From: Trichodesmium erythraeum IMS101
Lineage (GTDB): Bacteria > Cyanobacteriota > Cyanobacteriia > Cyanobacteriales > Microcoleaceae
Reading direction: 5' to 3'
NCBI RefSeq assembly: GCF_000014265.1
Contig: NC_008312.1
Coordinates: 5,970,001 to 6,002,000, forward strand
DNA: 32,000 nt
Shown here: in pieces, positions 2 through 19,332 of the stretch
How positions within the stretch are numbered: the first letter of the stretch is position 1
How the letters are laid out: the number at the start of each line of letters is the position of its first letter
The notes under the pieces: model-generated
What the model was told of the DNA's origin: nothing
The model's database searches: none
The model's input: the letters and a program-made list of their open reading frames with translations, nothing else
Translations under genes and position numbers: made by a program

Positions 2-3000
2 CACCCTCTAGTTATCTTTATTGATGATTTACAATGGGCAGACTTACCCTCTCTAAATTTAATAGAGCAATTAATGTCAAATTCTGACAACCAATATTTT
101 CTGATGCTGGGGGCATATAGAAATAATGAAGTTAGTTCAACCCATCCTTTAGTAAATACCTTAAATAAAATTAAGCAAGGAAAAGTTATAGTTAATGAAA
201 TTAGCCTTTCGCCCTTAAAATTTACCCACATTAATCAATTAATTGCTGATACCCTCAGTTGCAGCTCAGAAATTTCAAAACCTTTAGCTAAGTTAATTGG
301 GAAAAAAACCAATGGTAATCCTTTTTTCCTAACTCAACTTCTCTATTATTTGTATCAAGAAAGTTTGCTAGTATTTCAGGACCCTCAGTCTTTAATTAAT
401 ACAAAAAAACATCAAAAATGTTATTGGCAATGGGATATAGAAAAGATTAAAAGGGTATCTATTACCGATAATGTAGTAGAATTGATGGTAAGTAAAATTG
501 AAAAATTAGAGCTAAAAACTCAAAATATTCTCAAATTAGCAGCTTGTATTGGTAACCAATTTAATTTAGAAATTCTTTCGATTATTAATAGAAAATCTCA
601 AATAATTACTGCCCAAGAATTAGAATATGCAATTCAGGAAGGACTAATAAATCCTCTGGATAATAACTATAAAATCGTTTTACTTTGGAATGCTGAAGAA
701 TTATCAAATGAGCTACTAGAAAACTATTTGGAATCAGCCAAGTACGTCCCCTACAAATTTTTGCATGACCGAGTTCAACAAGCTGCCTATTCTTTAATTC
801 CAGAAGATCAGAAAAATAAATTACATTTACAAATAGGTCGTCTACTACTGAGAAATATTGGAGAAGATGAGTTAGAAAAGAAGATATTTGATATTGTTAA
901 TCAATTGAATGAAGGGAGTGCTTTAATAACTAAAAAATCAGAAAGATATGAATTAGTTAAACTTAATCTTAAAGCAGGTAAAAAAGCTAAAGCTTCAACA
1001 GCTTATGCACCAGCTTTAAGATACTTAGAAACTGGTTTAGAACTATTAGAGGAAAATAGCTGGCAGAATCATTATCAATTGACTTTAGAACTTCATGTAG
1101 AAACCTTAGAAATTTTATATTTAAATGCCAAGTGGGAGCAAACTGAAGAATTATCTAGAACTATTCTGCAAAAAGGTCAAAATATTCTTGATAAGGTTAA
1201 AGTTTATGAGTTAATTATTATGTCTTATTTTGCTCAATTTAAGACACAGAAAGCAATTAATACTGCTTTGAAAGCTTTAACAAAACTGGGTGTATCTTTA
1301 TCCCAAGAAGTTGTTAGTGAAAGTGAAATAAAAAATAGGATTAAACAAGAAAATGAATCACTAAAATTGAAATTAAAAAGAAAAACAATTGCCGAATTAG
1401 CTGATTTGCCAGAATTAACTGATCCTTATAAACTAGCAGCCATATCAATATTGCAGCAAGTTAGGACTTCAACAGTGACAACAAATATGTCATTATTTGT
1501 AGAGATACTTTTAACTCAACTAAGTCTTTGTATAAAATATAATAATCCTCCTCAAGCTGCTGCTATTTATGTTTCTTATGGAGCGCTTCTATATGGAGTA
1601 ATAGGAGATATTGATTCTGGGTATCAGTTTGGAAAACTGTCTCTCAGATTACTAGAGAAATACAATGTTACTAAATTTGAAGCTTTAGTAATTCATAACT
1701 TTTTTGCATATATATGGCATTGGAGAAAGCTGATAAATGACAAGATAGTAGAAGAAAAATTACTTAATACTATACAGAAAGGTATCAATATAGGAAGTAA
1801 TGAATATGTTTGTTATACCTGTTTGTTATATTGCCTTCTCAGGTTTTTTAGAGGAGTTAATTTAGAGCAAGTTAAGGAGGATTTTATAACATATACTGAG
1901 GTAGTTAAAAAAATTGATCAAAAATTTTCTATCAATCAGATAGAAATGCTGAAAAATATTACGGAAAACTTAAGAAATGAAAGCCAATATAAATACTGTT
2001 TGTTGCTGGGAAATTCTCAAGATGAAGAGGATGCATATTTAGAAATACATAAGAATAAGATGAATGTTTATTTGCTGTTTGTTTACTATTTTAGTAAAAC
2101 ACTTGTTTCTTATTTTTTGAAAGATTACTTGATAGCTTTTAAGAGTAGTCAAGATGCTAGAAAATATGTGATGGAACAGATGGGGCATTTAATAAAACCA
2201 CAATATAATTTCTATTCTTCTCTTTCTTTGATAGCTTATTACAATAATGCTAATACAAAACAGCAAAAAGAATTACTAGAACAGGTAGGCAAAAATCAGG
2301 AGAGTATGAAAATATGGAGTCAATATTGCCCAGAAAACTTTCAACATAAATATGATTTAGTAGCAGCAGAAAAAGCCAGAATATTAGGGCAAAATTGGCG
2401 AGCACAAGAATTTTATGAAAAAGCGATTCAAGGAGCAAAAAAATATGAATTTATCCACGAAGAGGCTTTAGCTTACGAACGAGCATCTGAATTTTATTTT
2501 ACCTTTGGGAGAGAAGAAATCGGTCAATTGTACTTAAGAAATGCTTATCATTGTTACATCCGTTGGAGAGCAAAAGCTAAAGTTAAACAATTAGAATCAG
2601 AATATCCTCAGTATTTATTAGGAATAACGAATCAGAATAAATCTCAAGGGTTAAGTACGACGATATCTACAACAGGAAATGATGGAGAAATTCTCGACTT
2701 AACTACAGTTATTAAAGCATCTCAAGCAATTTCTGGTGAAATTAAGTTAGAAAATCTCCTGCACAATTTAATGAAAATTGTGATTGAAAATGCTGGGGCT
2801 CAAAAAGGCTTTTTAATTCTTAACCATAAAGGTAGTTGGGTTATTGAAGCCCAAGGAAATGTAACAGAAGAAGAAGTTACTATTTTGCAATCAATTCCGA
2901 TTAAGTTGAAGGAACATGATAATTCAAATCTAATATTACCTGATAGTATCATTAATTATGTTGCTCGTACTCAAGAATATGTAGTACTAGATGAAGCATT

Positions 3001-4453
3001 TTCTGAAGGTCAATTTATTAATGATCCTTACATTATTGCGAACCAAACTAAGTCTATTCTCTCTACTCCTTTACTTAATCAAGGTGAATTAAAAGGTATT
3101 GTTTATTTAGAGAATAATTTAACTACAGGGGCATTTACTTCACAACGAATAGAACTATTAAATATCCTATCTGCTCAAGCTGCTATTTCTATTGATAATT
3201 CAAGACTATACCAAACTTTAGAACAAAGAGTAGAAAAACGGACTAAAGAACTATCACAAACATTAAGTGTTCTCAAAGCAACTCAAGCAGAATTAATTTT
3301 TGAAAATGACTTACTAAAAGATAATACACAACTTTCTAGTTTCGATTATCAAGTAGGAGGAAGTTTGCCTATGGACGCACCAACTTATGTGGTACGACAG
3401 GGGGATAGAACCCTTTACAAAGGGTTAAAACAAGGTCAGTTTTGTTATATTTTTAATTCTCGACAAATGGGTAAATCTAGTCTAATGATCAGAATGATGA
3501 ACCATTTAAAGCATGAAGGATATAAATGTGTAGCCATAGATTTAACTCGTATTGGGACTTCTAATGTTACTGTTGAACAATGGTATAAAGGATTAATAGT
3601 TGATTTATTACGAAGTTTTGGGTTACGCAGAAAAGTTGATTTTAAAGCTTGGTGGAATGAGCGGTTAGATATTTCTCCTGTGCAAAGGTTTGGTCAATTT
3701 CTGGAAGATTTATTGTTAGTTGAAGTCAATTCAGAGCATCAAGAGTCGCCTCAAAAAATATTCATTTTTATTGATGAAGTTGATAGTATTTTACGGTTAA
3801 ATTTCCCAGTTGATGACTTTTTTGCTTTGATTCGTTCCTGTTATAATGAACGAATGATTAATCCAGAATCTAGGTATCATTATCTTACTTTTATTGTTCT
3901 AGGAGTTACGACTCCTTCAGAATTGATAAAAGATCGTAAAAAAACTCCTTTTAATATTGGTCAAGCTGTTGAATTGGAAAGTTTTAAAATCCATGAAGCA
4001 CAGCCTTTATTATATGGATTAACTGAGAAAGTAAGTAATCCTCAAACCATCCTTAAAGAAATCTTAAATTGGACAGGAGGACAGCCTTTTTTAACCCAAA
4101 AATTATGTCGAATAATTCGTAATATCGAAACTGAGATTCCAACTAATGATGAAAGTAAATGGATTGAAAATTTAGTCCAAGAAAAATTTATTCATAATTG
4201 GGAAAGTCAGGATCAACCAGAGCATTTAAGAACTATTAGAGATAGAATTTTACACAGCAAAAATAGTCAAAAACTTCTCTCCCTTTATCAAGAAATATTA
4301 GAGGAAAGAAAAGTAATTTTTATTCATACTTCAGAAGAAGAGGAATTACGTTTATTAGGACTGGTGATTAAGGAAAATGGTTTTCTGAAAGTTCATAACC
4401 GTATCTATGAATTGATTTTTAATTCTCATTGGGTTGAGTCCCAAAAGTCTTGA
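2..4453 (+). CDS. Large STAND-type signalling protein, 5'-truncated by the window edge: AAA_16-like NTPase (Walker B region), helical/TPR-like region, GAF, coiled coil, then a C-terminal AAA-like (PF14516/AAA_35-like) P-loop module
   Basis: The frame of ORF 74..4453 stays open back to nt 2 ([25 protein letters not shown]). This is the Walker-B block typical of AAA_16 domains in cyanobacterial Ser/Thr-kinase/sensor proteins. GAF-like block at ~2690-3215 (GIVYLENN...[20 protein letters not shown]). Coiled coil, then [22 protein letters not shown]...[10 protein letters not shown] (P-loop ~3461-3481), [23 protein letters not shown]. Confidence 0.85.
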
Positions 4454-4811: not shown

Positions 4812-7262
4812 TCACAGGAAAGAACTATCAGACTGATCTAATTCTAAAGTACTTTGAAAGCCAGTAATAGGAGTCCATTGAATGGCGCCATCACGACCTG
4901 TCCAAAATAGAGGAATATTATTTTCTTGAAAAAATTCAATCATATCTGGATGGACAGAGTCTGAAGAAGCGATCGCTACTTTTGGCCGAATAATATTCAA
5001 TAACTCTGCATTCAGCTTATTCCCGGACCACCAAAGCACTTCTGTTGGCTGAAAACTTTTTTCTGCTAATAACTTACTTTGTTGAGATAGCTCAGTATTC
5101 CCCAATAATAACCAACTTTGGCCATGAATCATAAATTTTACGATTGGGGTCTCAGAGTTAATTAATTTCATCTGGGTAGAACCTAAGTCAACATTTTGAT
5201 TCTTTATCACAGTATAGTAATTAGCTTTAATCTTTTGCAGAGCATTAAACACGGGTTGATTATTAGTTTGATAACCTTTTTCCTCATCAGTTTCCACATC
5301 ATAAAAAGTTTTAATTTTCAAGCTTTCAAAAACATATGGCCACCCACGACTTAGACCTTTTTGGGAATGAAGATCAATAGACCAATCAATTTTATTAATA
5401 CCTTGCTGCCGTAAGAATGGTAACACTTTAAACCTGGCTGTATTTTCATCTCCAGCATTGACCAAAATTACTTTACCTTGATCTTGAATAACAAAAACTG
5501 GTTTGGAGGGTGAGTCAAGAATGGTAGCTTGAAATACAGAGGTCCGAGTATACCACAGAGGAATAATAATAATAGCGATCGCCAAGAGCAAACTCCACTG
5601 CCAAAGCTTCAGAGAGAACTTTTTCTTCTTACCCTTGTCTACTTCTGGAGTTTTACTTTCCAAAAACCATGTGGTAAAAATCAACCCATATAGCACAACT
5701 AACTGATAAACGGATATTGCTCCCACTGCAACTTGATTTCCTGGTAACCTGCTAAAAAACTGTACAATTTCAATCAAAATCTTAACTGGAAAATGTAAAA
5801 TCATAGCGCTCAAGCTCCCTGCATCGGGGTAAATTAAGGCTAGCATTGCACTAATAAATCCACCTACAGTAATTACAGTCACCAGAGGTGCAACAATAAT
5901 ATTCACTAAAATAGCATAGGGCGAAACTACATAAAACACAGATAACAATAGAGGTAACACCCAAACAGAAGCAGAAATATAAATAGCAGCTAAATAGGCA
6001 ATACCGGAGGGCAACATATTTAAGCGTTTTGTTAAAGGTGGCAATGTTACCAATAGCCCAAGAGTCGCCAAAAAACTCAACTGAAACCCTAAATTCCAAA
6101 TCCACAAGGGATTAATTAATAACAGCAAAGTAGCAGCTAAAAGTAGAGAAACTAATGGTTTAACCATGCGTTGGAAAACAATTCCTAGCAAAGTGGCTAA
6201 ACCCATCAAAGCTGCTCGCAATACTGAAGGTACAAAACCTGTAAAAGCGACGTATATACTTAGGAGCAGGATACCAAAACTAAATCTTTTTCCTGAAGAC
6301 ATTTTTTTAGTTAAGGTCAGGACTGCACCCAAAATTAGGGAAACATGAAAACCTGATGCTGCCAATATATGAGCTAAACCTACCTGTATAAATTGGTCTC
6401 GTAGTTGATAGGAAAAATCTACGGCCTTACGCCCTAAAACCATAGCACTTACTAGAGGACCTTCTGGCACACCTAAGAACTTTACCTGAGCGCGAATAAT
6501 TCTCTGCCGAATTTTATATAAACCCCAAACATTATTTTCTTGGTTCAGCTCAGTAATTTTATAACCTGTAACTCCGGCAAAAGCACCTTCTCTAGCTAAA
6601 TAAGCGCGAAAATCAAAGCCTCCAGGGTTAGTTGCTGGTGATGGTCTATATAAAGAGCCGGTTATTGCTACTAATTCATTAGGATAAATACCTGTTGCTT
6701 GCAAAAGTGGTATTGTAACGTAAACCTTTCCTGTCACATCTTGGTGTACGTTTGCGGAGCCGCCAGTACCAACTACTTCACTAACTTGAGATGCTTTTAA
6801 CCAAAGTTGGGCTTTTCCTGAGCGAGTTGTGCGGGGAACAGAAAGAACTTTGCCTCGAACAATAACTACTTGTTGTTGAGACTCTCCATCAAGTGAAATA
6901 ATTTTACTAATGTCGCTTGCTGTGGGTTGGGGTACTCGCCATTGAAAATAAATACTTGCCAGCAGAGCGATCGCTCCTGCAGTTATCCACAACCAATTTG
7001 AGTTTAGTAAGTTTTTTCTAGTTCTTCTGGTGAGTAAGTCTTGAAGTTTATTACTTCTGAGTAAGTCTTCAGAACTTATTTCTTGCTCAGAAGCTGTCAT
7101 TTCTCTAGTTAACTTACGTAAATTTTGTCGGTATATTTGTTGTGCAATAGTTGCTAATAATAATCCTATAGTTACTACAGCATATATACCCCAAGGTAAA
7201 ATAGTAGATAATAGCCCCATTATATAAGCTAGGCAGATAACGATCACTACAGCTTGATTCAT
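4812..7262 (-). CDS. comEC: DNA internalization-related competence protein ComEC/Rec2 (polytopic membrane core plus C-terminal metallo-beta-lactamase-like domain)
   Basis: 816-aa ORF with many TM helices. Contains the ComEC-core signature region LAHILAASGFHVSLILG...SVLRAALMG, an N-terminal OB/DUF4131-like part, and a C-terminal segment laid out like the ComEC MBL domain. Confidence 0.9.
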   Translation of the reverse strand: MNQAVVIVICLAYIMGLLSTILPWGIYAVVTIGLLLATIAQQIYRQNLRKLTREMTASEQEISSEDLLRSNKLQDLLTRRTRKNLLNSNWLWITAGAIALLASIYFQWRVPQPTASDISKIISLDGESQQQVVIVRGKVLSVPRTTRSGKAQLWLKASQVSEVVGTGGSANVHQDVTGKVYVTIPLLQATGIYPNELVAITGSLYRPSPATNPGGFDFRAYLAREGAFAGVTGYKITELNQENNVWGLYKIRQRIIRAQVKFLGVPEGPLVSAMVLGRKAVDFSYQLRDQFIQVGLAHILAASGFHVSLILGAVLTLTKKMSSGKRFSFGILLLSIYVAFTGFVPSVLRAALMGLATLLGIVFQRMVKPLVSLLLAATLLLLINPLWIWNLGFQLSFLATLGLLVTLPPLTKRLNMLPSGIAYLAAIYISASVWVLPLLLSVFYVVSPYAILVNIIVAPLVTVITVGGFISAMLALIYPDAGSLSAMILHFPVKILIEIVQFFSRLPGNQVAVGAISVYQLVVLYGLIFTTWFLESKTPEVDKGKKKKFSLKLWQWSLLLAIAIIIIPLWYTRTSVFQATILDSPSKPVFVIQDQGKVILVNAGDENTARFKVLPFLRQQGINKIDWSIDLHSQKGLSRGWPYVFESLKIKTFYDVETDEEKGYQTNNQPVFNALQKIKANYYTVIKNQNVDLGSTQMKLINSETPIVKFMIHGQSWLLLGNTELSQQSKLLAEKSFQPTEVLWWSGNKLNAELLNIIRPKVAIASSDSVHPDMIEFFQENNIPLFWTGRDGAIQWTPITGFQSTLELDQSDSSFL

Positions 7263-7264
7263 TT

Positions 7265-7435
7265 TTGTCGTTAGACTTTAGCTTCTTCAACTTAAATATA
7301 CATTGCTGGATCCTAACTACTACCCTTATTTATTTTTTGTAGTTAGACTTTAGCCCCTTCAACTGAGAATATGTATTGCTTAAGCCCAACTACTAGCTTG
7401 ATTTATTATTTGTAGTTGAGCTCAAGCTCCATTTA
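7265..7435. repeat. ~72-bp tandem direct repeat, about 2.3 copies, in the comEC upstream spacer
   Basis: Units start at 7265 (TTGTCGTTAGACTTTAGCTTCTTCAACT...), 7337 (TTGTAGTTAGACTTTAGCCCCTTCAACT...) and 7410 (TTGTAGTTGAGCTCAAGCTCC, partial). Similarity is visible along the whole unit (..ATTGCT..AACTACTA..TTATT). Confidence 0.7.
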
Positions 7436-10283: not shown

Positions 10284-10703
10284 ATCTATTTCGACATCTG
10301 AATCTAATTTTTGTGCTTGATTATAAAGATTAATTGTTTGTTCTATTTTTCCCTCTTTTGCTAATTTTTTACCTTCTTTTACTTTGGCAGAAGCAGCAAT
10401 TTTGTTTGCTACAAGTTGGGGGTCTGTTTCTCTAGTTTCTGTATCAGGATCGAGGTCAATTTCTGGTGATAATTTTTGGGCTTCTTTAAACAGAGAAATT
10501 GCCTCTTCTATTTTTCCCTCTATTGCTAATTTTTTACCTTATTTTAATTTGGCAGAAGCAGCAAGTTTATTTGCTACAAGTTGGGGGTCTGTTTCTCTAG
10601 TTTCTGTATCAGGATCGAGGTCAATTTCTGGTTCCAATTCTAGAGCTTTTTTGAAGATAGAAATTGCCTGTTTGATTTTCGGTTTTTCCCCTGTTTTTGC
10701 AAG
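10284..10703. repeat. 165-bp (55-codon) tandem repeat, ~2.5 copies, spanning the stop codon of the caspase-WD40 gene
   Basis: Copy 1 is 10539-10703, copy 2 is 10374-10538, and copy 3 (partial) is 10284-10373. A 55-nt stretch CAAGTTGGGGGTCTGTTTCTCTAGTTTCTGTATCAGGATCGAGGTCAATTTCTGG is identical at ~10412 and ~10577. Confidence 0.85.
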
Positions 10704-13700
10704 ATTTTTAGCTTCTGCAATTAAACTAGGATGAACGGGAATATTTTTGCAAGTTTTCTGATATGTCTCCAAGTCGCTGTTGATATACTGCTGCCACTCC
10801 TCTGCTGTTAAATTCCGACTCAGACGGCGACAACCTTCTTGAATTAAGCCTTTTGGTGTTGTCCAATGGAGGCGGGCGGTTTTGTCAGAACTTGCAGTTG
10901 CAATGGTTTTGCCGTCGGGGCTAAAGGCTACTGCATTTACCGAGGACTGGTGGTTGAGAGTAGCTAATACTTTGCCATTCTCAGTATCCCAGAGGCGGGC
11001 GGTTTTGTCATAACTTGCAGTTGCAATGGTTTTGCCGTCGGGGCTAAAGGCTACTGCATTTACCGAGGACTGGTGGTTGAGAGTAGCTAATACTTTGCCA
11101 TTCTCAGTATCCCAGAGGCGGGCGGTTTTGTCATAACTTGCAGTTGCAATGGTTTTGCCGTCGGGGCTAAAGGCTACTGCAAATACCCTGGACTGGTGGT
11201 TGAGAGTAGCTAATACTTTGCCATTCTCAGTATCCCAGAGGCGGGCGGTTTTGTCAGAAGTTGCAGTAGCAATGGTTTTGCCGTCGGGGCTAAAGGCTAC
11301 TGCATTTATATCGAGCTGGTGGTTGAGAGTAGCTAATACTTTGCCATTCTCAGTATCCCAGAGGCGGGCGGTTTTGTCTCTACTTGCAGTAGCAATGGTT
11401 TTGCCGTCGGGGCTAAAGGCTACTGCTATTACCCAGTCCTGGTGGTTGAGAGTAGCTAATTCTTTGCGAGTCTTAGTATCCCAGAGGCGGGCGGTATTGT
11501 CATAACTTGCAGTTGCAATGGTTTTGCCGTCGGGGCTAAAGGCTACTGCTCTTACCCAGTCCTGGTGGTTGAGAGTAGCTAATTCAAAGCCATTCTCAGT
11601 ATCCCAGAGGCGGGCGGTTTTGTCTAAACTTGCAGTTGCAATGGTTTTGCCGTCGGGGCTAAAGGCTACTGCCCATACCCTGTCCTGGTGGTTGAGAGTA
11701 GCTAATTCTTTGCCATTCTCAGTATCCCAGAGGCGGGCGGTATTGTCTCTACTTGCAGTAGCAATGGTTTTGCCGTCGGGGCTAAAGGCTACTGCATTTA
11801 CCGAGGACTGGTGGTTGAGAGTAGCTAATTCTTTGCCATTCTCAGTATCCCAGAGGCGGGCGGTTTTGTCATCACTTGCAGTAGCAATGGTTTTGCCGTC
11901 GGGGCTAAAGGCTACTGCCCATACCCTGTCCTGGTGGTTGAGAGTAGCTAATTCAAAGCCATTCTCAGTATCCCAGAGGCGGGCGGTATTGTCAGAACTT
12001 GCAGTAGCAATGGTTTTGCCGTCGGGGCTAAAGGCTACTGCATTTACCCAGAACTGGTGGTTGAGAGTAGCTAATTCTTTGCCATTCTCAGTATCCCAGA
12101 GGCGGGCGGTTTTGTCATAACTTGCAGTTGCAATGGTTTTGCCGTCGGGGCTAAAGGCTACTGCTCTTACCCTGGACTGGTGGTTGAGAGTAGCTAATAC
12201 ATTGCCATTCTCAGTATCCCAGAGGCGGGCGGTTTTGTCAGAAGTTGCAGTAGCAATGGTTTTGCCGTCGGGGCTAAAGGCTACTGCTCTTACCGAGTCC
12301 TGGTGGTTGAGAGTAGCTAATTCTTTGCCATTCTCAGTATCCCAGAGGCGGGCGGTTTTGTCATTACTTGCAGTAGCAATGGTTTTGCCGTCGGGGCTAA
12401 AGGCTACTGCTCTTACCGAGTCCTGGTGGTTGAGAGTAGCTAATTCTTTGCCATTCTCAGTATCCCAGAGGCGGGCGGTTTTGTCAGAACTTGCAGTTGC
12501 AATGGTTTTGCCGTCGGGGCTAAAGGCTACTGCTCTTACCCTGGACTGGTGGTTGAGAGTAGCTAATACATTGCCATTCTCAGTATCCCAGAGGCGGGCG
12601 GTATTGTCATAACTTGCAGTTGCAATGGTTTTGCCGTCGGGGCTAAAGGCTACTGCTATTACCCTGTCCTGGTGGTTGAGAGTATGGAGATGATCAGGCA
12701 GTTGAGTTAACCCTTTGCGAATAGCTCCATCAGCGGCATTTTGAGGTATATCTGAGAACTGACTCCCTAAAAATTTCCTAACCACTTTTCGCCACCCAGA
12801 GTCTTGCCATTCTTTAAATTCTTGAATTCTGTTCATTGACTGGACTCCCAACAAAACAGTTGTGTCATAACTGTTATAAGTTGTCAATAATTCTGCTTTT
12901 GCCGCTAACTGACGGGTAAAGAATATTTCACTATTATGTTTAGCTATGTTTTGCTGCATCCAAGCATAACCAGATACCCCAGTCATTAAAACCAAAGAAA
13001 CACCCAAAATTTGATTCCGTCTTTGAGCTAATTTTCTAGCTTTCTTTTCTTGCTCTAACTCCCTTTCTTTACGTTCCTTTTCTTCCTTTTCCTCACGAAT
13101 TCTCAACTCCTGACTCGCCTCAATAAATTCATAAGCCAACCCATCCAACAAACCCATATCCCCATACTTTGTCACATATTCTTCTGCCTTAGTTAACTGA
13201 GTTTCTCGTAATAACAAACCCTCATTTTTTCCATCCTTTTCCCACCCAGCCGCATCAGCCTCAATTTTCCTTTCCACCGGCAAAGCCTCTTGATATTCCT
13301 CCACCCATTTCCTCAAAGTTTTCCAACTTCTAATTAAGTCCTCATGAATAATATCTAATAATGTTCCTGCCTCTGACTTATCCTTAGTAATTAATCGATT
13401 ATTTGGGTCAGCCAAATTATCACTAACCTCCAATAAAAGCTCTAAAGTATGTTCTTTATTAGGCAACTTTTCCAAAATTACTCGCCGCCGAGTATCCGTT
13501 ACCTTGAGAAAATTAACTGACCGTTCCCCAGGCTGAACTAACTCTAAAAATATCCTCTTGGCAACCGACTTTTTCTCTTTATTCAAACTCTCATAAACTG
13601 CATCAGCTTGCTTCGTCAAAGTACCCTGAATTCCACCCAACTTTTCATAACTTGCCAGAGTTAAATATTGACTTTTATCCTCCCCTTGAGTAGCAGATTT

Positions 13701-15200
13701 CCACAGAGCATCCAAAGTATATTGTAACAGAGGTAAACTACCAGGATTACGCAAAAAATCTGCTGCCATTTGAGCAACTAACTTAGGTTCTACTCCCATT
13801 CCCACTAATTCCGCCGGCTTCTTAATTGCTTCCTCTATCTCATCCTTTTCCAAAGGAGTTACTAATAATTGATGCTCCTTAATTTCTGTTGCCAACCCAG
13901 AATATTTTGAACATTGGTCAAGAAAATCTGCCCGCATTCCTAAGACCAAACAAAACTTATTTTTAGTTTTTTCATTTGCCAAAACAGACAAAAAACAATC
14001 AAAAAATTCCCGTCGTTTTTCATCAGTTTCACAGAGAGTAAAAGACTCCTCAAATTGGTCAATTACCATCAAGACTTTTTCCGCCTTTACTTCATTAATA
14101 AAATCGATCAGTTTTTCCGTTAAATTCTCTATTTTTTCACTCTTTATATTAACTGCCTTTTGCAGACTTTCCAGAGGAGAAGAACTCGGAGTAAAAGGCT
14201 TAATATATAACCATCTGTCACTTCCAGATATTTTCTGCCCCCGCTTCAATTGATATAACAAACCCGCCCGTAACAAAGAAGACTTTCCACTACCCGAAGC
14301 CCCCAAAACCGCCACAAAATTATTAGTTCTAACTCGGTCAATTAACTCATCAGTCAACTGAGTTCTACCATAAAAAAATACCCCATCTTTTTCCTGTTCA
14401 GTAAAATAAGATAAAGCCCGATAAGGAGGAGTTTTTTTCCAACGTCCGTCTAGAGATTTAGTCTGAGTATTAGTAGTCAGAATAATCGCATCTCCTGAAT
14501 TATGAAAAACAGGAGATTGAGAAATATTCAGCATATTATTCTTAATAGAATCTGCCAAAATATAGTTAGTAACCCAACCATCAATAGAACTTTCTGGATT
14601 TAAACCTTTAAGTAAATTAGCCGTAAAAACACCATGTTTTCCATCTATTTCTGACACACTTTTTTCAAAAGAACGAGAAGAAGTAATAAAACAGCGACTT
14701 ACTTCTTTTCCAGTACCAGGGTCAGCCTCTTGAGAATTTAATAATTCCCCACCAAAACAACAGTCTAACCAAACAATTTGTTTTTTCACCGGACTTTGGC
14801 GTAATAAATCTTTCAACCAACTTAAAGATATGCCATAAATATCCCTTTTTAATTGCACATCACTAGTTACTAAAAATCCTTCTCTAACACCCCCTTCTGT
14901 TGTTACAAAACCATGACCAGCAAAAAAGAATAAAGCCACATCAGGAATTTCATTTTTTGAGATAGGATTAAATAAATTACTAACTTTTATTTTGAGGTTT
15001 TTCCTATAAACAAAGCCATCAGATATAAATCTTTCCCTACCAGTTTCATCATAATCTTTTGGCAAACCTTGAACATGAAAATTGCCATACTTTTCCAACA
15101 TTTCAGCAATAGCTTCAGCATCTTTAACTGGAGCTTTAAGGTTTAAACCAGGTTCAAATACATGTTCATTAATTCCAACAACTAAAGCTTCTATACGCAT
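10539..15200 (-). CDS. Caspase-like peptidase C14 / STAND P-loop NTPase / predicted TM helix / 15 x WD40 repeat protein (orthocaspase/metacaspase-like conflict or cell-death type receptor)
   Basis: N-terminus has a caspase His/Cys dyad context (ALFFFAGHGF ~14905-14935; IVWLDCCFGG ~14745-14780). P-loop VLGASGSGKSSLLRAGL (~14282-14312) and Walker B MVIDQFEESFT (~14041-14075), the DQFEE-type STAND NTPase. Basic coiled coil plus hydrophobic ILGVSLVLMTGVSGYAWM (~12962-13015). Fifteen 41-aa WD units follow. Confidence 0.93.
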   Translation of the reverse strand: MRIEALVVGINEHVFEPGLNLKAPVKDAEAIAEMLEKYGNFHVQGLPKDYDETGRERFISDGFVYRKNLKIKVSNLFNPISKNEIPDVALFFFAGHGFVTTEGGVREGFLVTSDVQLKRDIYGISLSWLKDLLRQSPVKKQIVWLDCCFGGELLNSQEADPGTGKEVSRCFITSSRSFEKSVSEIDGKHGVFTANLLKGLNPESSIDGWVTNYILADSIKNNMLNISQSPVFHNSGDAIILTTNTQTKSLDGRWKKTPPYRALSYFTEQEKDGVFFYGRTQLTDELIDRVRTNNFVAVLGASGSGKSSLLRAGLLYQLKRGQKISGSDRWLYIKPFTPSSSPLESLQKAVNIKSEKIENLTEKLIDFINEVKAEKVLMVIDQFEESFTLCETDEKRREFFDCFLSVLANEKTKNKFCLVLGMRADFLDQCSKYSGLATEIKEHQLLVTPLEKDEIEEAIKKPAELVGMGVEPKLVAQMAADFLRNPGSLPLLQYTLDALWKSATQGEDKSQYLTLASYEKLGGIQGTLTKQADAVYESLNKEKKSVAKRIFLELVQPGERSVNFLKVTDTRRRVILEKLPNKEHTLELLLEVSDNLADPNNRLITKDKSEAGTLLDIIHEDLIRSWKTLRKWVEEYQEALPVERKIEADAAGWEKDGKNEGLLLRETQLTKAEEYVTKYGDMGLLDGLAYEFIEASQELRIREEKEEKERKERELEQEKKARKLAQRRNQILGVSLVLMTGVSGYAWMQQNIAKHNSEIFFTRQLAAKAELLTTYNSYDTTVLLGVQSMNRIQEFKEWQDSGWRKVVRKFLGSQFSDIPQNAADGAIRKGLTQLPDHLHTLNHQDRVIAVAFSPDGKTIATASYDNTARLWDTENGNVLATLNHQSRVRAVAFSPDGKTIATASSDKTARLWDTENGKELATLNHQDSVRAVAFSPDGKTIATASNDKTARLWDTENGKELATLNHQDSVRAVAFSPDGKTIATATSDKTARLWDTENGNVLATLNHQSRVRAVAFSPDGKTIATASYDKTARLWDTENGKELATLNHQFWVNAVAFSPDGKTIATASSDNTARLWDTENGFELATLNHQDRVWAVAFSPDGKTIATASDDKTARLWDTENGKELATLNHQSSVNAVAFSPDGKTIATASRDNTARLWDTENGKELATLNHQDRVWAVAFSPDGKTIATASLDKTARLWDTENGFELATLNHQDWVRAVAFSPDGKTIATASYDNTARLWDTKTRKELATLNHQDWVIAVAFSPDGKTIATASRDKTARLWDTENGKVLATLNHQLDINAVAFSPDGKTIATATSDKTARLWDTENGKVLATLNHQSRVFAVAFSPDGKTIATASYDKTARLWDTENGKVLATLNHQSSVNAVAFSPDGKTIATASYDKTARLWDTENGKVLATLNHQSSVNAVAFSPDGKTIATASSDKTARLHWTTPKGLIQEGCRRLSRNLTAEEWQQYINSDLETYQKTCKNIPVHPSLIAEAKNLAKTGEKPKIKQAISIFKKALELEPEIDLDPDTETRETDPQLVANKLAASAKLK
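10865..12695. repeat. 15 tandem 123-bp (41-codon) near-identical WD40-encoding repeats
   Basis: CAATGGTTTTGCCGTCGGGGCTAAAGGCTACTGC recurs every 123 bp (10901, 11024, ... 12625). Protein unit: LATLNHQxxVxAVAFSPDGKTIATA(S/T)xD(K/N)TARLWDTENGxx. Confidence 0.97.
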
Positions 15201-15834: not shown

Positions 15835-16308
15835 ATGAACAATTCTATGGACAAATTCTTATTATCTTTAATGTATGCAATCAAAGAATTAGAAACCCCT
15901 TTAACTTCAGAGGAAAAAAAACAACTCAAAAGTGCTGGTAAACAATTAGAGACTGACCCCACAGCTTGGGAAACTTATACTAAACCCATGTTAAAAGAAG
16001 TAATTAGCAAGAACTCATCTCTGAATAAAATCTTTCAAAATATTCATTCAAACCTCGAAAAAATCAGCGATAATTCTCAATATTTTATCCAACCCACCGA
16101 AGATTTAGTAACAGTTACCCCAAGGGAAAGTTCATTAGAAGAACGCCCACTTATTAAACCGGATCCTGAAGAGGAAGATAATTATGAACTTCTCAATATG
16201 TCTATTCAGGTTTTACAATTTCCAGAGCCACAAGAAAAAGTAAAAAAAATTAGTAAGCTTGAGAAATTCTGGAATTTGATTTCTCAAAATAATTCCGACA
16301 AGAAATAA
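15835..16308 (+). CDS. Hypothetical protein (157 aa, acidic, no recognisable domain)
   Basis: ATG preceded by AAGGA 8 nt upstream. ORF with no internal repeats. I recognise no motif. Confidence 0.5.
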   Translation: MNNSMDKFLLSLMYAIKELETPLTSEEKKQLKSAGKQLETDPTAWETYTKPMLKEVISKNSSLNKIFQNIHSNLEKISDNSQYFIQPTEDLVTVTPRESSLEERPLIKPDPEEEDNYELLNMSIQVLQFPEPQEKVKKISKLEKFWNLISQNNSDKK

Positions 16309-16396
16309 AATAAAGCTTCAAATATTAGGAGTCATCTCATTTTTTTTAAGCCTTGATTTAGGGTGGGTTTCAGCTATCTAAAAAACCAGAGACAAT

Positions 16397-17989
16397 TCTA
16401 TTAACTAAGACAATTTGATAGATTTTCTAACCCGCCATTATTTGCCTTCAACTTCTGGAAAAATAACATTCTGGAAAAACAATATTCTGGAAAAATAACA
16501 TTCTGGAAAAATAACATTCTGGAAAAACAATATTCTGGAAAAATAACATTCTGGAAAAACAATATTCTGGAAAAATAAGATTCTGGAAAAACAATATTCT
16601 GGAAAAATAAGATTCTGGAAAAATAATATTTAGGTATTATCGATAAGACAATTTGATAGATTTTCTAACCCGCCATTATTTGCCTTCAAATTCTGGAAAA
16701 ATAAGATTCTGGAAAAATAAGATTCTGGAAAAACAACATTCTGGAAAAACAATATTCTGGAAAAACAATATTCTGGAAAAATAACATTCTGGAAAAACAA
16801 TATTCTGGAAAAACAACATTCTGGAAAAATAAGATTCTGGAAAAACAATATTCCGGAAAAATAATATTCTGGAAAAATAATATTTAGGCATTATCGATCA
16901 GACAATTTGATAGATTTTCTAACCCGCCATTATTTGCCTTCAAATTCTGGAAAAATAAGATTCTGGAAAAACAACATTCTGGAAAAATAAGATTCTGGAA
17001 AAACAATATTCTGGAAAAATAATATTCTGGAAAAATAATATTTAGGCATTATCGATCAGACAATTTGATAGATTTTCTAACCCGCCATTATTTGCCTTCA
17101 AATTCTGGAAAAATAAGATTCTGGAAAAACAACATTCTGGAAAAATAAGATTCTGGAAAAACAATATTCTGGAAAAATAATATTCTGGAAAAATAATATT
17201 TAGGCATTATCGATCAGACAATTTGATAGATTTTCTAACCCGCCATTATTTGCCTTCAAATTCTGGAAAAATAAGATTCTGGAAAAACAACATTCTGGAA
17301 AAATAATATTCTGGAAAAATAAGATTTAGGCATTATCGATCAGACAATTTGATAGATTTTCTAACCCGCCATTATTTGCCTTCAAATTCTGGAAAAACAA
17401 TATTCTGGAAAAACAACATTCTGGAAAAATAAGATTCTGGAAAAATAAGATTCTGGAAAAATAAGATTCTGGAAAAATAAGATTCTCGAAAAACAATATT
17501 CTGGAAAAATAACATTCTGGAAAAATAAGATTCTGGACAAACAATATTTAGGTATTATCGATAAGACAATTTGATAGATTTTCTAACCCGCCATTATTTG
17601 CCTTCAAATTCTGGAAAAATAAGATTCTGGAAAAACAATATTCTGGAAAAACAATATTCTGGAAAAATAAGATTCTGGAAAAATAAGATTCTGGAAAAAT
17701 AATATTTAGGCATTATCGATCAGACAATTTGATAGATTTTCTAACCCGCCATTATTTGCCTTCAAATTCTGGAAAAACAATATTCTGGAAAAACAACATT
17801 CTGGAAAAATAAGATTCTGGAAAAACAATATTCTGGAAAAATAAGATTCTGGAAAAATAAGATTCTGGAAAAACAAGATTCTGGAAAAATAACATTCTGG
17901 AAAAATAACATTCTGGAAAAACAATATTCTGGAAAAATAAGATTCTGGAAAAATAAGATTCTGGAAAAATAATATTTAGGTATTATCGA
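16397..17989 (+). repeat. Two-level tandem array: 8 blocks of [~62-bp header + 4-13 copies of the 16-bp unit TTCTGGAAAAA(T/C)AA(C/T/G)A], 68 units in total, plus a truncated 9th header
   Basis: Unit runs start at 16453, 16691, 16945, 17103, 17261, 17387, 17609 and 17767, with 11, 12, 6, 6, 4, 10, 6 and 13 units. Headers TTTAGGYATTATCGATMAGACAATTTGATAGATTTTCTAACCCGCCATTATTTGCCTTCAAM start at 16629, 16883, 17041, 17199, 17325, 17547, 17705 and (truncated) 17975. Confidence 0.97.
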
Positions 17990-18404
17990 AACGAAAACCC
18001 GAAATTTTTCATGGTACTAATTTGATAACAAATATATTTATATTTTCCCTATCGGAAGTAACTATGGTTAGCGATCGCTCTATCAGTTAGTTCTCAGAAA
18101 AAAACCGAAATAACTCATTACCACCAGTAGAGTCAGTAACAAAATTAAACTTAGTAATTATGAATTATTTTTCAACTGCCCTAATGCCTGAAAAATCAAG
18201 AAATTTTCTCATTTGTTCAAACTTTTTATCTAACCCTTAAATCGTGATTTTTTTTTCTCATTTTTCATAAAACCTACGAACACTTAAAAATCATTAACTT
18301 CTCCCTAAAAATCTCTATTTAATAAGAAAATCTTGACTTTTATTGAATAAATTATCAAAACTATAGTGGGCAATATGAAAAAGTTTATACTGATTCACCT
18401 TTTC

Positions 18405-18560
18405 CCCCAAACAAGCAAAGTCATTACCCTGATATTGCTAATCTTACTTCAGAATTAGAGACAGAATTTGGCAATAAAAAAGTCTGACCTCAAAGTTTTC
18501 TAATAAACTCTAAAACTATTTATTCTACATATTTAGCTGAAGATACTATTGCCAAAATTT
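18405..18560 (+). pseudogene. Second, heavily decayed relic of the same Uma2-family gene
   Basis: ~155 bp aligns by eye, at roughly 70% identity, to 9350-9500. Example: CAAACAAGCAAAGTCATTACCCTGATATTGCTAATCTTACTTCAGAATTAGAGACAGAATTTGGCAATAAAAAAGT versus CAAACAAGCAAGGTGGTTATTCTGATGTGGCTTATCTTACTTGGAAATTGGATACAAATTTTGGCAATGAAAAAGT. Multiple stops, no ORF. Confidence 0.6.
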
Positions 18561-18633
18561 CAAGCTTCCCGCTTTAGTAAGAAATACCGTTTCACTACAA
18601 AACACAAAAATGCAGTTTTGCGCCCAAAAAGCC

Positions 18634-18657
18634 AACTGATAACTGATAGCTGAAATA
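18634..18657. repeat. Left arm of a 24-nt inverted repeat built from AACTGAT-type heptamers (STRR-like)
   Basis: AACTGATAACTGATAGCTGAAATA. It is complementary to 19337-19360 at 21 Watson-Crick positions plus 3 G:U positions. Confidence 0.85.
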
Positions 18658-18672
18658 TCTAATAAGACATCA

Positions 18673-19332
18673 GTGTCACAAAAAATTATACAAATACTTT
18701 ATTTTATGAATAATCAAATTTTGAAGAAAAAATTACAAGAAAAAATCAAAAATATTCAAACTAGAAATGATGGTTCTCCTGTTACTAACTTGAAGATAGA
18801 AAAAACTTTAGAGAAAGAAATTGAGCAGTTAACAAAAGAACTAGAAAATCTAAATCCTCATCCTCAACCTCTCTTATCTGCTCCTAATTTATTAGAGGGA
18901 ACTTGGCAACTGCAATACTCTACAGCTAGAGAAATTCGTTCTTTAGATTCCCTACCATTAGGATTAAAAGTAGGTAAAATTTATCAAGTAATTAATATTG
19001 AAGATAAAGCATTTTTCAACCTAGCTCAAGTAAAATATCCTCTAAAATTAATATCAGGATATGTAAAAGTAACTGCTAGTTTTGAACCTGCTATAAATAC
19101 ACTTGGTTTAGTAGATAAACGTATCAATGTATATTTTGACCAACGTTATTTAGCAATAGAGAAAATTTTAGGTATTGACACCCCTAAACTCAATCCCTTT
19201 AAAGTTATAAAAGCTAATAATCCTCAAGGTAGAGTCGCTACACTTGATATTACTTATATAGACGAAAATTTCAGAGTAGGACGTGGGGGAGATGAAAGTT
19301 TATTTATTCTCAATAAAGCTAATATTTTATAG
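18673..19332 (+). CDS. PAP/fibrillin (plastoglobulin-like) family protein
   Basis: LEGTWQLQYSTAREIRS...KVGKIYQVI...ATLDITYIDENFRVGRGGDESLFILNK matches the PAP_fibrillin pattern (GxWxLxYTS ... LDxTYLDxxLRIxRGxxGxLFVL). The track start is GTG at 18673; the first ATG is at 18706. Confidence 0.85.
   Translation: MSQKIIQILYFMNNQILKKKLQEKIKNIQTRNDGSPVTNLKIEKTLEKEIEQLTKELENLNPHPQPLLSAPNLLEGTWQLQYSTAREIRSLDSLPLGLKVGKIYQVINIEDKAFFNLAQVKYPLKLISGYVKVTASFEPAINTLGLVDKRINVYFDQRYLAIEKILGIDTPKLNPFKVIKANNPQGRVATLDITYIDENFRVGRGGDESLFILNKANIL

Follow-up and report, generated by a model that had tools for sequence, protein, structure and literature searches.

The repeat array described here occupies the spacer between Tery_3870 and Tery_3871 of Trichodesmium erythraeum IMS101. 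It was analysed within a window of 32,000 nucleotides (contig NC_008312.1, positions 5,970,001 to 6,002,000), to which all coordinates below refer. The features that flank the array are as follows.

10539-15200, minus strand: Tery_3869, a caspase (Peptidase_C14)-nSTAND1-WD40 protein of 1553 aa (domains from Pfam on an orthologue; identified by name and locus tag)
15835-16308, plus strand: Tery_3870, a hypothetical protein of 157 aa without a Pfam family
16309-16405, plus strand: unique spacer 3' of Tery_3870, with 80% identity in the sister clade
18673-19332, plus strand: Tery_3871, a PAP-fibrillin family protein, the downstream neighbour

The array starts 98 nt after the stop codon of Tery_3870, and the divergent neighbour Tery_3869 is considered as context only. 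The unique spacer in front of the array (16309-16405) was also conserved in a second gene context. The other genes nearby are those of an acetyltransferase, Hydrolase_3, a SpoU methylase, glyQ and a ComEC-like protein. A literature search with the locus tags Tery_3869, Tery_3870 and Tery_3871 returned no paper naming them. The genome of T. erythraeum is approximately 60% protein-coding and 40% non-coding, and other tandem arrays are present in it (PMC4143802).

Parsing with a regular expression reproduced the two-level layout that had been described by the original prediction, i.e., eight blocks containing 68 units of 16 bp. The unit has the form TTCTGGAAAAA[T/C]AA[C/T/G]A (n = 68), and the runs in the IMS101 reference assembly contain, in order, 11, 12, 6, 6, 4, 10, 6 and 13 units. 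A 43-nt header core was found eight times (at 16409, 16647, 16901, 17059, 17217, 17343, 17565 and 17723). TRF reported a 16-bp period with 96 copies, and also longer periods (126, 158 and 254). When one mismatch at most was allowed, the 11-nt core of the unit gave 73 matches in the 32-kb window, compared with 3.15 ± 1.8 expected by chance, and five of these matches lay outside the array. The parts of the array are listed below.

16406-16452, plus strand: native left flank, which is copy 1 of the header core, TAAGACAATTTGATAG...GCCTTCAAC, 47 nt
16453-16628, plus strand: unit run 1, 11 units of 16 bp
16623-16651, minus strand: promoter-like site TTGTCT-N17-TATTAT at a block junction, identified by consensus match only (9/12 positions)
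16629-16882, plus strand: block 2, 62-nt header (T..A variant) and 12 units
16883-17040, plus strand: block 3, header (C..C variant) and 6 units, identical to block 4
17041-17198, plus strand: block 4, header (C..C variant) and 6 units
17199-17324, plus strand: block 5, header (C..C variant) and 4 units
17325-17546, plus strand: block 6, header (C..C variant) and 10 units
17547-17704, plus strand: block 7, header (T..A variant) and 6 units
17705-17974, plus strand: block 8, header (C..C variant) and 13 units
17975-17989, plus strand: native right flank TTTAGGTATTATCGA, 15 nt, identical to the 5' end of every internal header

Comparison with relatives changed the reading of both ends of the array. 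The native left flank had been counted as the first header. The repeated segment proper extends from 16406 to 17989, and its last 15 nt (17975-17989), previously read as the start of a ninth header, are the native right flank; in relatives, the single unit run is followed by these 15 nt as well. The 47-nt left flank recurs in each internal header and is single-copy in three relatives (L018, L020 and L038). Each 62-nt internal header is composed of TTTAGGYATTATCGA from the right flank (15 nt) joined to TMAGACAATT...TTCAAA from the left flank (47 nt), and in the single-block relatives each of these flanks runs directly into unique DNA. The junction between blocks also creates a 10-bp palindrome, TTATCGATAA.

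Variation within the units is confined, as originally noted, to two positions, with just three further substitutions, located in units that begin at 16851, 17483 and 17531. Six alleles were counted: TAAGA (24 units), CAATA (18), TAATA (10), TAACA (8), CAACA (7) and CAAGA (1). The seven internal headers vary solely at positions 7 (T/C) and 17 (A/C), and the two substitutions are linked, being found together in five blocks. Blocks 3 and 4 are identical. Words of four units were shared between blocks more often than expected (7 observed versus 2.0 expected, p = 0.007), and the ancestral allele, TAATA, was the last unit in six of the eight blocks (p = 5e-5), as it was in the single-block relatives. 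The restriction of variation to two unit sites was not statistically significant (p = 0.09, or 0.66 when recombinant alleles were allowed). The earlier idea of a two-position code was thus abandoned: the order of the alleles is explained by descent, as shown by the shared four-unit words, and the limit to two sites is not significant. The two variable positions are old polymorphisms that were carried along by duplications, and they encode no message. Separately, we considered adenine mutagenesis of the DGR type, both variable sites being A on the minus strand; this candidate was rejected, since three other minus-strand adenines are invariant and there is no template repeat.

We then compared the same spacer among relatives. 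In two assemblies of the sister clade (L038 and L040), exactly one 16-mer, TTCTGGAAAAATTATA, was present between recognisable left and right flanks, and the homologue of Tery_3870 was 81.6% identical at the nucleotide level and 69.6% identical at the amino acid level. The sister clade therefore has a single unit without block repetition, and the array itself is absent from it. The 11-nt core of the unit was identical at 11/11 positions in L038 and at 10/11 in L048. Six independent assemblies (L020-L025) contained one header and 6 units on contigs that run into both flanks. Their flanks, as measured in L020 and L021, match the window at approximately 98% identity, and the Tery_3870 gene was 96.8% identical at the nucleotide level. 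One header with 11 units was found in L018; the relatives are short-read assemblies, and a longer array may have collapsed in L018 but is unlikely to have done so in the six assemblies that share the 96-bp run. For two further assemblies only lower bounds on the unit number were obtained (at least 14 in L019 and at least 9 in L046). The relatives with 6, or with 11 to at least 14, units show approximately 97% identity. A TARA metagenome scaffold (L047) carried a block of 5 units, a second header (the recombinant T..C) and then at least 3 units. Thus, copy number at the Tery_3870-fibrillin spacer is polymorphic, with 1, 6, 11, at least 9, at least 14, and 5 plus at least 3 units in relatives versus 68 units in IMS101.

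The long array in the reference might have been generated by the assembly itself, the eight-block order of IMS101 being a mis-assembled version of a simpler repeat with one block. The array interrupts every short-read assembly, the internal order of the blocks is read from the reference, and the third-from-last unit of one assembly (L017) is CAATA, compared with TAAGA in the window. Nine independent short-read assemblies were, however, identical to the window up to a break within the first header or the first unit run. Logan contigs are built with k = 31. Three of them ended at 16435, exactly 30 nt past the last unique base (16405), which suggests that, in those independent read sets, the header occurs with a second left context, i.e., at least two in all. 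Two blocks and the header junction between them were present on the TARA scaffold, and the single-block relatives were assembled straight through the locus, which indicates that breakage is specific to multi-block genomes. Furthermore, unit order and header variant differ between blocks, and a process of collapse and expansion would not invent such differences. The array is therefore not an artefact of a single assembly, and a mis-assembled block order is highly improbable.

Searches for copies in other genomes and elsewhere in the window were negative. No match to a header 38-mer was obtained in the genome collection. The unit dimer gave seven isolated chance matches in unrelated taxa among 185,579 species-representative genomes and 12 unrelated chance matches in the metagenome collection, with no related arrays in either. 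Scans of viral contigs gave no match, nor did a BLAST search of the first 392 nt (spacer and array start) against plasmids and phages, and no other copy of the array was found within the 32-kb window. Two exclusions made in the original prediction held. The array is not a CRISPR; its repeats have no unique sequence between them, and no cas-like ORFs were seen among the scanned neighbours. It is also not an IS or MITE; neither the array nor its blocks are bounded by terminal inverted repeats, no transposase lies nearby, and no dispersed copies occurred in the window or in the collections searched.

The most probable interpretation, to which we assign a probability of approximately 75%, is that the array is a young, hypervariable, higher-order tandem repeat, that is, a nested VNTR (minisatellite), in the Tery_3870-Tery_3871 spacer of IMS101. 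It had been called unclassifiable, but the orthologous loci show a stepwise expansion from 1 to 6, then 11 to at least 14, and then 68 units, and this expansion, together with internal headers that consist of the right flank joined to the left flank, identifies the element as a higher-order VNTR. The units are arranged head-to-tail in an exact 16-bp register, copy number is polymorphic, and there is no reading-frame constraint. The features of segmental duplication are present as well: each junction joins the distal flank to the proximal flank, and the blocks are related by descent.

These observations suggest an origin in three steps. A 16-nt sequence that is single-copy in the sister clade was, as the comparison of relatives shows, duplicated and expanded head-to-tail in the T. 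erythraeum lineage, probably by replication slippage. The junction sequence shows that the unit run, together with the adjoining 47 nt on its left and 15 nt on its right, was then duplicated in tandem, most likely through unequal recombination or template switching; such a duplication yields blocks whose header is the right flank followed by the left flank. Subsequently, further slippage and unequal exchange may have altered the unit number and allele order of each block and may have spread the derived C..C header variant through five blocks.

Bacterial VNTR and minisatellite loci are used for MLVA typing. The IMS101 array resembles them in that short non-coding units lie head-to-tail between two genes, near-identical strains have different copy numbers (1, 6, 11, at least 14, and 68), the flank-adjacent units keep the ancestral allele, and slippage explains the origin. 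Unlike a typical locus of this kind, it has a second level, in which eight blocks re-copy 62 nt of flanking unique sequence, and it is unusually large (1.6 kb, 68 units). The second level is comparable to the higher-order repeats of eukaryotic satellites that arise by unequal crossing-over: periodicity is nested (16 bp within 126-270 bp), the blocks are related by descent, and variants have been homogenised and spread across blocks. In contrast to satellite repeats, the array lies on a prokaryotic chromosome arm, its scale is tiny, its block length is not constant, and it shows no sign of a centromeric or structural role.

Functional readings of the array were weighed against this background. 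In one of them, which we consider unlikely, each block junction would act as a minus-strand promoter and the array, amplified in T. erythraeum for dosage, would produce U-rich RNAs built from 16-nt modules (UNUURUUUUUCCAGAA); the RNAs might sponge an RNA-binding protein. By analogy, the NsiR1 array and a highly expressed 6-kb array of IMS101 could serve as models. HetF is caspase-like, and NsiR1 is among the Rfam families. In heterocystous cyanobacteria, the NsiR1 tandem sRNA array lies upstream of hetF (Ionescu et al. 2010, cited in PMC6596454), which provides a precedent for a tandem sRNA array beside hetF. The present array is similar in being a cyanobacterial intergenic tandem array near a caspase-family gene, possibly with one predicted promoter per repeat; it differs in having neither sequence similarity nor an Rfam match nor a terminator per repeat, in not being conserved across species (the sister clade has a single copy), and in containing an internal microsatellite in each repeat. 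The other model, at 103-110 kb of IMS101, exceeds 6 kb and comprises 7 repeats of 736-973 bp, for which a transcription start has been mapped and the transcript measures 260 nt (PMC4143802). It shares with our array the genome, the intergenic tandem arrangement and the lack of relatives in other genomes, whereas the blocks described here are shorter (126-270 bp) and are built from a 16-bp unit. Other tandem arrays of IMS101 are its most highly transcribed loci, such transcription is extreme, and 27% of the transcription start sites in T. erythraeum are intergenic (PMC4143802). At the present locus, the promoter-like sequence TTGTCT-N17-TATTAT occurred at five of the seven internal junctions (equivalent minus-strand sites at 16877-16905, 17035-17063, 17193-17221 and 17699-17727), six of the eight blocks end in the allele that yields TATTAT, and a -10-like hexamer was present at the boundary between unit and right flank in three clades (TATAAT in L038, TATTAT, and AATTAT in L048). 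However, the match to the consensus is only 9/12, the -35 element is restricted to derived junctions, and descent from the duplicated segment accounts equally well for the terminal TAATA. The number of promoter-like sites in the region (28 versus 17.2 ± 4.4 expected) is inflated by repeat copies. In the plus-strand promoter proposed earlier (TTGATA-N15-CATTAT), the spacer is out of range, and the sister clade lacks the final T of the second hexamer (CATTAA). The array contained no terminator-like site. Folding of one block gave no signal (z = -1.55 for the plus strand and +1.51, worse than shuffles, for the minus strand), and RNAalifold applied to the ancestral single-copy region of three clades on both strands gave consensus energies of -2.0 and -6.7 kcal/mol, to which covariation contributed nothing. 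The only Rfam match in the whole window at the gathering threshold was a tRNA-Ser elsewhere, and no match to the array was obtained at E ≤ 1 over 16250-18700. The list of the top 20 ncRNAs (PMC4143802) has no entry near Tery_3870 (5.87-6.06 Mb, interpolated by locus tag), and close relatives have either no array or a single block. The RNA-decoy hypothesis of the original prediction is accordingly without support, there being no RNA structure signal, no Rfam match and no array in the sister clade. An adaptive version, in which the junctions would be live promoters of a lineage-specific, copy-number-tunable ncRNA factory whose 16-nt modular transcripts titrate an RNA- or DNA-binding factor, seems quite unlikely; such a factory might be linked to the conserved pair formed by Tery_3870 and the caspase-nSTAND-WD40 gene, and, if this is true, Trichodesmium would have a third class of repeat-derived RNA expressed at high levels.

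A multivalent DNA-binding array (iteron, centromere or operator sink) is very unlikely. Here the TTC-NN-GAA dyad and the A5 tract of the unit would bind a protein that the array titrates or nucleates, and such a role would suit the near-invariance of the 11-nt core in the 68 units, its conservation in the sister clade, and the palindrome that arises at the block junction. The unit homogeneity is explained by recent origin, though, and a range from 1 to 68 sites among close relatives is hard to square with dosage-sensitive binding. Outside the array, the core shows no enrichment within the 32 kb (5 matches with one mismatch versus 3.15 expected), there is no plasmid or phage match, and none of the adjacent genes has a role in replication, partition or DNA binding. 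Like the iterons of plasmids and phages, the array consists of short direct repeats in tandem; unlike them, it has no adjacent rep gene or origin, lies in a chromosomal housekeeping context, and has a copy number that is far higher and variable among strains. The iteron or centromere hypothesis thus gained no support, replication and partition genes being absent nearby and the array being absent from the sister clade. The probability that the minus strand encodes a protein with 16-aa periodic peptides such as FFQNLIFPESYFSRIL is practically negligible. The unit is open in all three minus-strand frames, but the header has stops in all three, and the minus-strand ORFs therefore do not exceed 72 aa. 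The unit counts per block are not all multiples of 3, and they vary from 1 to 13 among relatives. A Pfam scan of the array ORFs gave no match, and the 72-aa ORF had no homologue in 5.8 billion protein clusters. An exact look-up of a 39-aa ORF spanning block 4, made in search of contigs from inside the array, was negative. The original judgement that the array is non-coding was upheld: the header has stops in five of the six frames, the plus-strand units contain TAA, and the 16-bp period is not a multiple of 3. A conserved small ORF over the header and unit, called in L050-L052, was also examined and rejected because its frame is closed by TAA in L038.

The nested VNTR is most likely selectively neutral non-coding DNA, which we adopt as the default reading and which fits a genome with only about 60% coding sequence. 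Plausible effects would be incidental only, namely a longer spacer and the multiplication of a weak promoter-like junction. The array is an ordinary kind of feature, though unusually large and neat for a bacterium, and it indicates no new biological mechanism at present. The locus nevertheless displays, in clear successive stages, how a nested array arises from unique bacterial sequence, from single copy through microsatellite to higher-order repeat. It also exemplifies one of the ways in which Trichodesmium enlarges its non-coding fraction, which is unusually large. In practical terms, the array is a systematic contig-break point in short-read assemblies and could serve as a marker that discriminates strongly between strains in T. 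erythraeum populations. As a counterpoint to the youth of the array, we also observed that the 11-nt core is near-invariant over all 68 units and conserved in L038 and L048, which could reflect constraint.

A regular-expression parse of the array (16397-17989) matched the original prediction exactly, with eight headers, 68 units, six unit alleles and three further substitutions. The 43-nt header core occurred eight times, and the units, TTCTGGAAAAA[T/C]AA[C/T/G]A, formed runs of 11, 12, 6, 6, 4, 10, 6 and 13. The alleles were TAAGA (24 units), CAATA (18), TAATA (10), TAACA (8), CAACA (7) and CAAGA (1), and the other substitutions lay in the units beginning at 16851, 17483 and 17531. The 62-nt internal headers (n=7) varied solely at positions 7 (T/C) and 17 (A/C), and the two changes were linked: blocks 2 and 7 carried the T..A variant (named by these two bases) and blocks 3, 4, 5, 6 and 8 carried C..C. 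At the block junction, the T..A variant creates TTATCGATAA, a perfect 10-bp palindrome (window 16634-16649 and 17552-17567), and the C..C variant reads ATCGATC, which includes GATC. TRF detected periods of 16, 126, 158 and 254 bp. The 11-nt unit core gave 73 matches with at most one mismatch (3.15 expected), only five of which, each with one mismatch, lay outside the array; no header pieces were found elsewhere in the 32 kb with up to 4 substitutions permitted. Exact protein matches place the window in Trichodesmium erythraeum IMS101. The array lies between Tery_3870 and Tery_3871, where G+C is approximately 28-30%. The wider neighborhood (glyQ and genes for a ComEC-like protein, an acetyltransferase, a SpoU methylase, an S11 peptidase and an SMC/SbcC-like ATPase) is ordinary chromosomal housekeeping.

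Genes around the array (window positions)
10539-15200, minus strand, Tery_3869, caspase-nSTAND1-WD40
15835-16308, plus strand, Tery_3870, 157-aa hypothetical protein
18673-19332, plus strand, Tery_3871, PAP-fibrillin

The synteny from Tery_3870 to the fibrillin gene was kept in relatives, and therefore their spacers were directly comparable; they provide the decisive evidence on the nature of the array. In the sister clade (L038 and L040), whose Tery_3870 homologue was 81.6% identical in nucleotides and 69.6% in amino acids, the 568-bp spacer read ...ACAATTTGATAGATATTGTCTCCCACCATTAATTGCTTTTAAT-TTCTGGAAAAATTATA-TTTAGGTGTTATTTAAACC..., with a single-copy 16-mer (14/16 identical) between recognizable left and right flanks. 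Six independent close-clade assemblies (L020-L025; Tery_3870 gene 96.8% identical in nucleotides, flanks approximately 98% identical to the window as measured on L020 and L021) each had one header and six units (TT or TG, then TT CT TT TT TT, by the bases at the two variable positions), followed by TTTAGGTATTATCGAAACG.... These contigs continued through the units into both flanks, and collapse is unlikely because the 96-bp run is shorter than the read length. ALOHA_ZT_67 had one header and 11 units, and two other contigs (L019 and L046) had at least 14 and at least 9 units, respectively, before the contig end. In a TARA metagenome scaffold (L047; neighboring ORF 94.7% identical in nucleotides), a first block of 5 units was followed by a second header of a recombinant T..C variant and by units including the rare CAAGA allele. 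Ending with the 8 blocks and 68 units of IMS101, unit number ran from 1 to 6, to 11 to at least 14, and to multi-block among genomes with an 82-100% identical flanking gene, which is the signature of a tandem repeat recently born and still unstable.

In single-block relatives, the run was preceded by ...CTATTAAC/TAAGACAATTTGATAG...GCCTTCAAC and followed by TTTAGGTATTATCGA/AACGAAAACCC. The IMS101 internal header fuses 15 nt from the right flank, TTTAGGYATTATCGA, with 47 nt from the left flank, TMAGACAATTTGATAG...GCCTTCAAA, so each block is a copy of a tandemly duplicated segment (47-nt left flank, units, 15-nt right flank). The supposed ninth header, broken off after 15 nt, is in fact native right flank, the same 15 nt that follow the run in single-block relatives; the first header, which matches the sequence before the run in these relatives, is native left flank. 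The T..A variant agrees with both native flanks and is the ancestral one; C..C is a derived variant that has spread through five blocks.

The allele order, first described as a two-position 'code', reflects descent. Blocks 3 and 4 were identical, CC-TG-CT was repeated in blocks 2, 3, 4 and 8, and different blocks shared seven four-unit words compared with 2.0 in shuffles (p=0.007). TAATA was the last unit in six of the eight blocks (p=5e-5), and single-block relatives ended likewise. These patterns are marks of descent via block duplication and local slippage. That variation was confined to two sites was not statistically remarkable: when 8 mutational events were distributed over 16 sites in simulations, 9% of runs placed 5 or more events on the two sites hit most often, and with CC and CG (CAAGA) arising via heteroduplex repair between existing alleles, 6 events suffice and the figure is 66%. 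Because relatives carry the same alleles, the unit polymorphisms predate block amplification.

In the best-supported account, the 16-mer would have been expanded by slippage, the segment including both flanks would have been tandemly duplicated, and unequal exchange would be continuing. The array is a VNTR/minisatellite that shares all the defining features tested and adds higher-order structure; we give the reading as a neutral higher-order VNTR a probability of 0.75. Neutrality is in keeping with the T. erythraeum genome, only about 60% of which is protein-coding and in which tandem arrays are common (PMC4143802). No finding demands a function, and a dosage-sensitive role is hard to square with copy numbers that vary so extremely between near-identical genomes. 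The kind of array is already known and this instance is new; it stands out chiefly by being large and tidy and by having all its intermediate stages still represented in wild populations.

The earlier concern that the array is an assembly artefact is highly improbable. All nine independent short-read assemblies with an identical Tery_3870 (IMS101 cultures and a Great Barrier Reef MAG) broke within the first header or first unit run, and up to the break they were base-for-base the same as the window. Three Logan contigs stopped at 16435, 30 nt beyond base 16405, the last base that tells the first header from internal headers; at k=31, which we take to be the Logan setting, this would be the expected break point given a second left-hand header context in the reads. 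An independent contig (L017) spanned the right edge, with the last three units and TTTAGGTATTATCGA; its positions 1-16 (window 17927-17942), the third unit from the end, read CAATA compared with TAAGA in the window, either a culture-level polymorphism or a repeat-collapse error. Because of these break points and the two blocks physically on one scaffold in L047, the multi-block architecture is real; the exact order of the eight blocks is taken from the reference assembly. Translation of the array is comparably improbable, and the non-coding claim held: the header has stops in 5/6 frames, plus-strand units contain TAA, and the minus-strand ORFs (at most 72 aa) had no Pfam match and, in a search of 5.8 billion protein clusters, no homologue. 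CRISPR and IS/MITE identities were rejected and an iteron identity is improbable, as the defining features tested were absent, with no terminal inverted repeats at the array; the first two exclusions agree with the original prediction, and its iteron-type hypothesis found no support. A DNA-binding array is put at very unlikely. Plasmid and phage BLAST searches with 392 nt (spacer and start of the array) and scans of viral contigs gave no match; the header 38-mer had zero matches in 185,579 species-representative genomes, and the unit dimer had isolated chance matches only in these genomes and a metagenome collection (IMS101 apparently left out in both cases).

An array of non-coding RNAs transcribed from junction promoters is unlikely, though less far-fetched. 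A promoter-like minus-strand site, TTGTCT-N17-TATTAT (9/12 match), occurred at 5/7 internal junctions and is the only feature keeping a transcriptional reading alive; moreover, the most abundant T. erythraeum transcripts arise from another tandem array (PMC4143802). In three clades, a -10-like hexamer sits where the unit meets the right flank (TATAAT in L038, AATTAT in L048), and the -35 part occurs only at the derived junction. The plus-strand pair proposed earlier (TTGATA-N15-CATTAT) was not called as a promoter, its spacer being outside 16-18 nt, and the sister clade reads CATTAA at the second hexamer. No terminator-like sites were found in the array, and Rfam gave no match to it, either at the gathering threshold or with E<=1. 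A block showed no folding advantage over shuffled sequence (z = -1.55 for the plus and +1.51 for the minus strand), and covariation support was absent on both strands of the ancestral region aligned over three clades. The NsiR1 array (PMC6596454) is similar only in that both are tandem arrays of cyanobacteria lying close to a gene of the caspase family; the IMS101 array differs in having no family match, no terminators and no cross-species conservation.

Between IMS101 and L038, identity was 80% in the spacer left of the unit, 76.6% in the header core and 87.5% in the unit, with coding identities of 81.6% (Tery_3870) and 91.2% (fibrillin); the distal spacer was 62% identical and gap-rich. In a third clade (L048, L050 and L052), the Tery_3870 homologue adjoins dynamin-like genes, and similarity runs from the stop codon as far as one diverged unit, TTCTAGAAAAACGATA, where it ends exactly. 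Because this clade keeps them in a different downstream context, approximately 165 nt 3' of Tery_3870 travel with that gene, perhaps as its 3' UTR or as a linked cis element; the array expanded at the distal end of this stretch. These nucleotides (window 16309-16470) were approximately 80% conserved with the sister clade, level with coding sequence, as was a 55-nt stretch right of the array (within 17975-18075; ATATTTATATTTTCCCTATCGGAAGTAACTATGGTTAGCGATCGCT, including a HIP1 site). No structure signal was found from the stop codon through the unit. In L048, a header-like segment is duplicated 186 nt apart (1330-1390 and 1516-1575; approximately 72% identity; alignment score 35, shuffle maximum 25), an older, independent event on the same stretch.

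Tery_3870 homologues are 149-161 aa long and without a Pfam family (window 15835-16308, plus strand; L042, L045 and L048-L052). In Dapis and Trichodesmium sp. MO_231.B1, they are divergent to an adjoining Peptidase_C14 caspase-family gene. In Dapis (L045), this neighbor is a complete caspase-nSTAND-WD40 gene, and in L042 just the C14 part is visible at the contig end. The P0069 clade also has a divergent upstream gene, cut by contig ends and unannotated. The caspase system may have a conserved partner in Tery_3870. Its protein is fast-evolving (96.6% nucleotide but only 93% amino acid identity to ALOHA_ZT_67, L018). In Tery_3869, a 123-bp period (10869-12684, minus strand; 14.8 copies, 92% identity) encodes near-identical 41-aa WD40 blades, whose homogeneity suggests concerted evolution or fast turnover of the sensor domain. 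Other tandem repeats lay at 10305-10669, at the Tery_3869 3' end (165 bp x 2.2 copies), and at 7246-7417, between the ComEC-like and DUF4079 genes (73 bp x 2.4 copies). Positions 74-4453 (plus strand) encode another large STAND-type ATPase, 1459 aa long and containing GAF and AAA_35 (AAA-like) domains.
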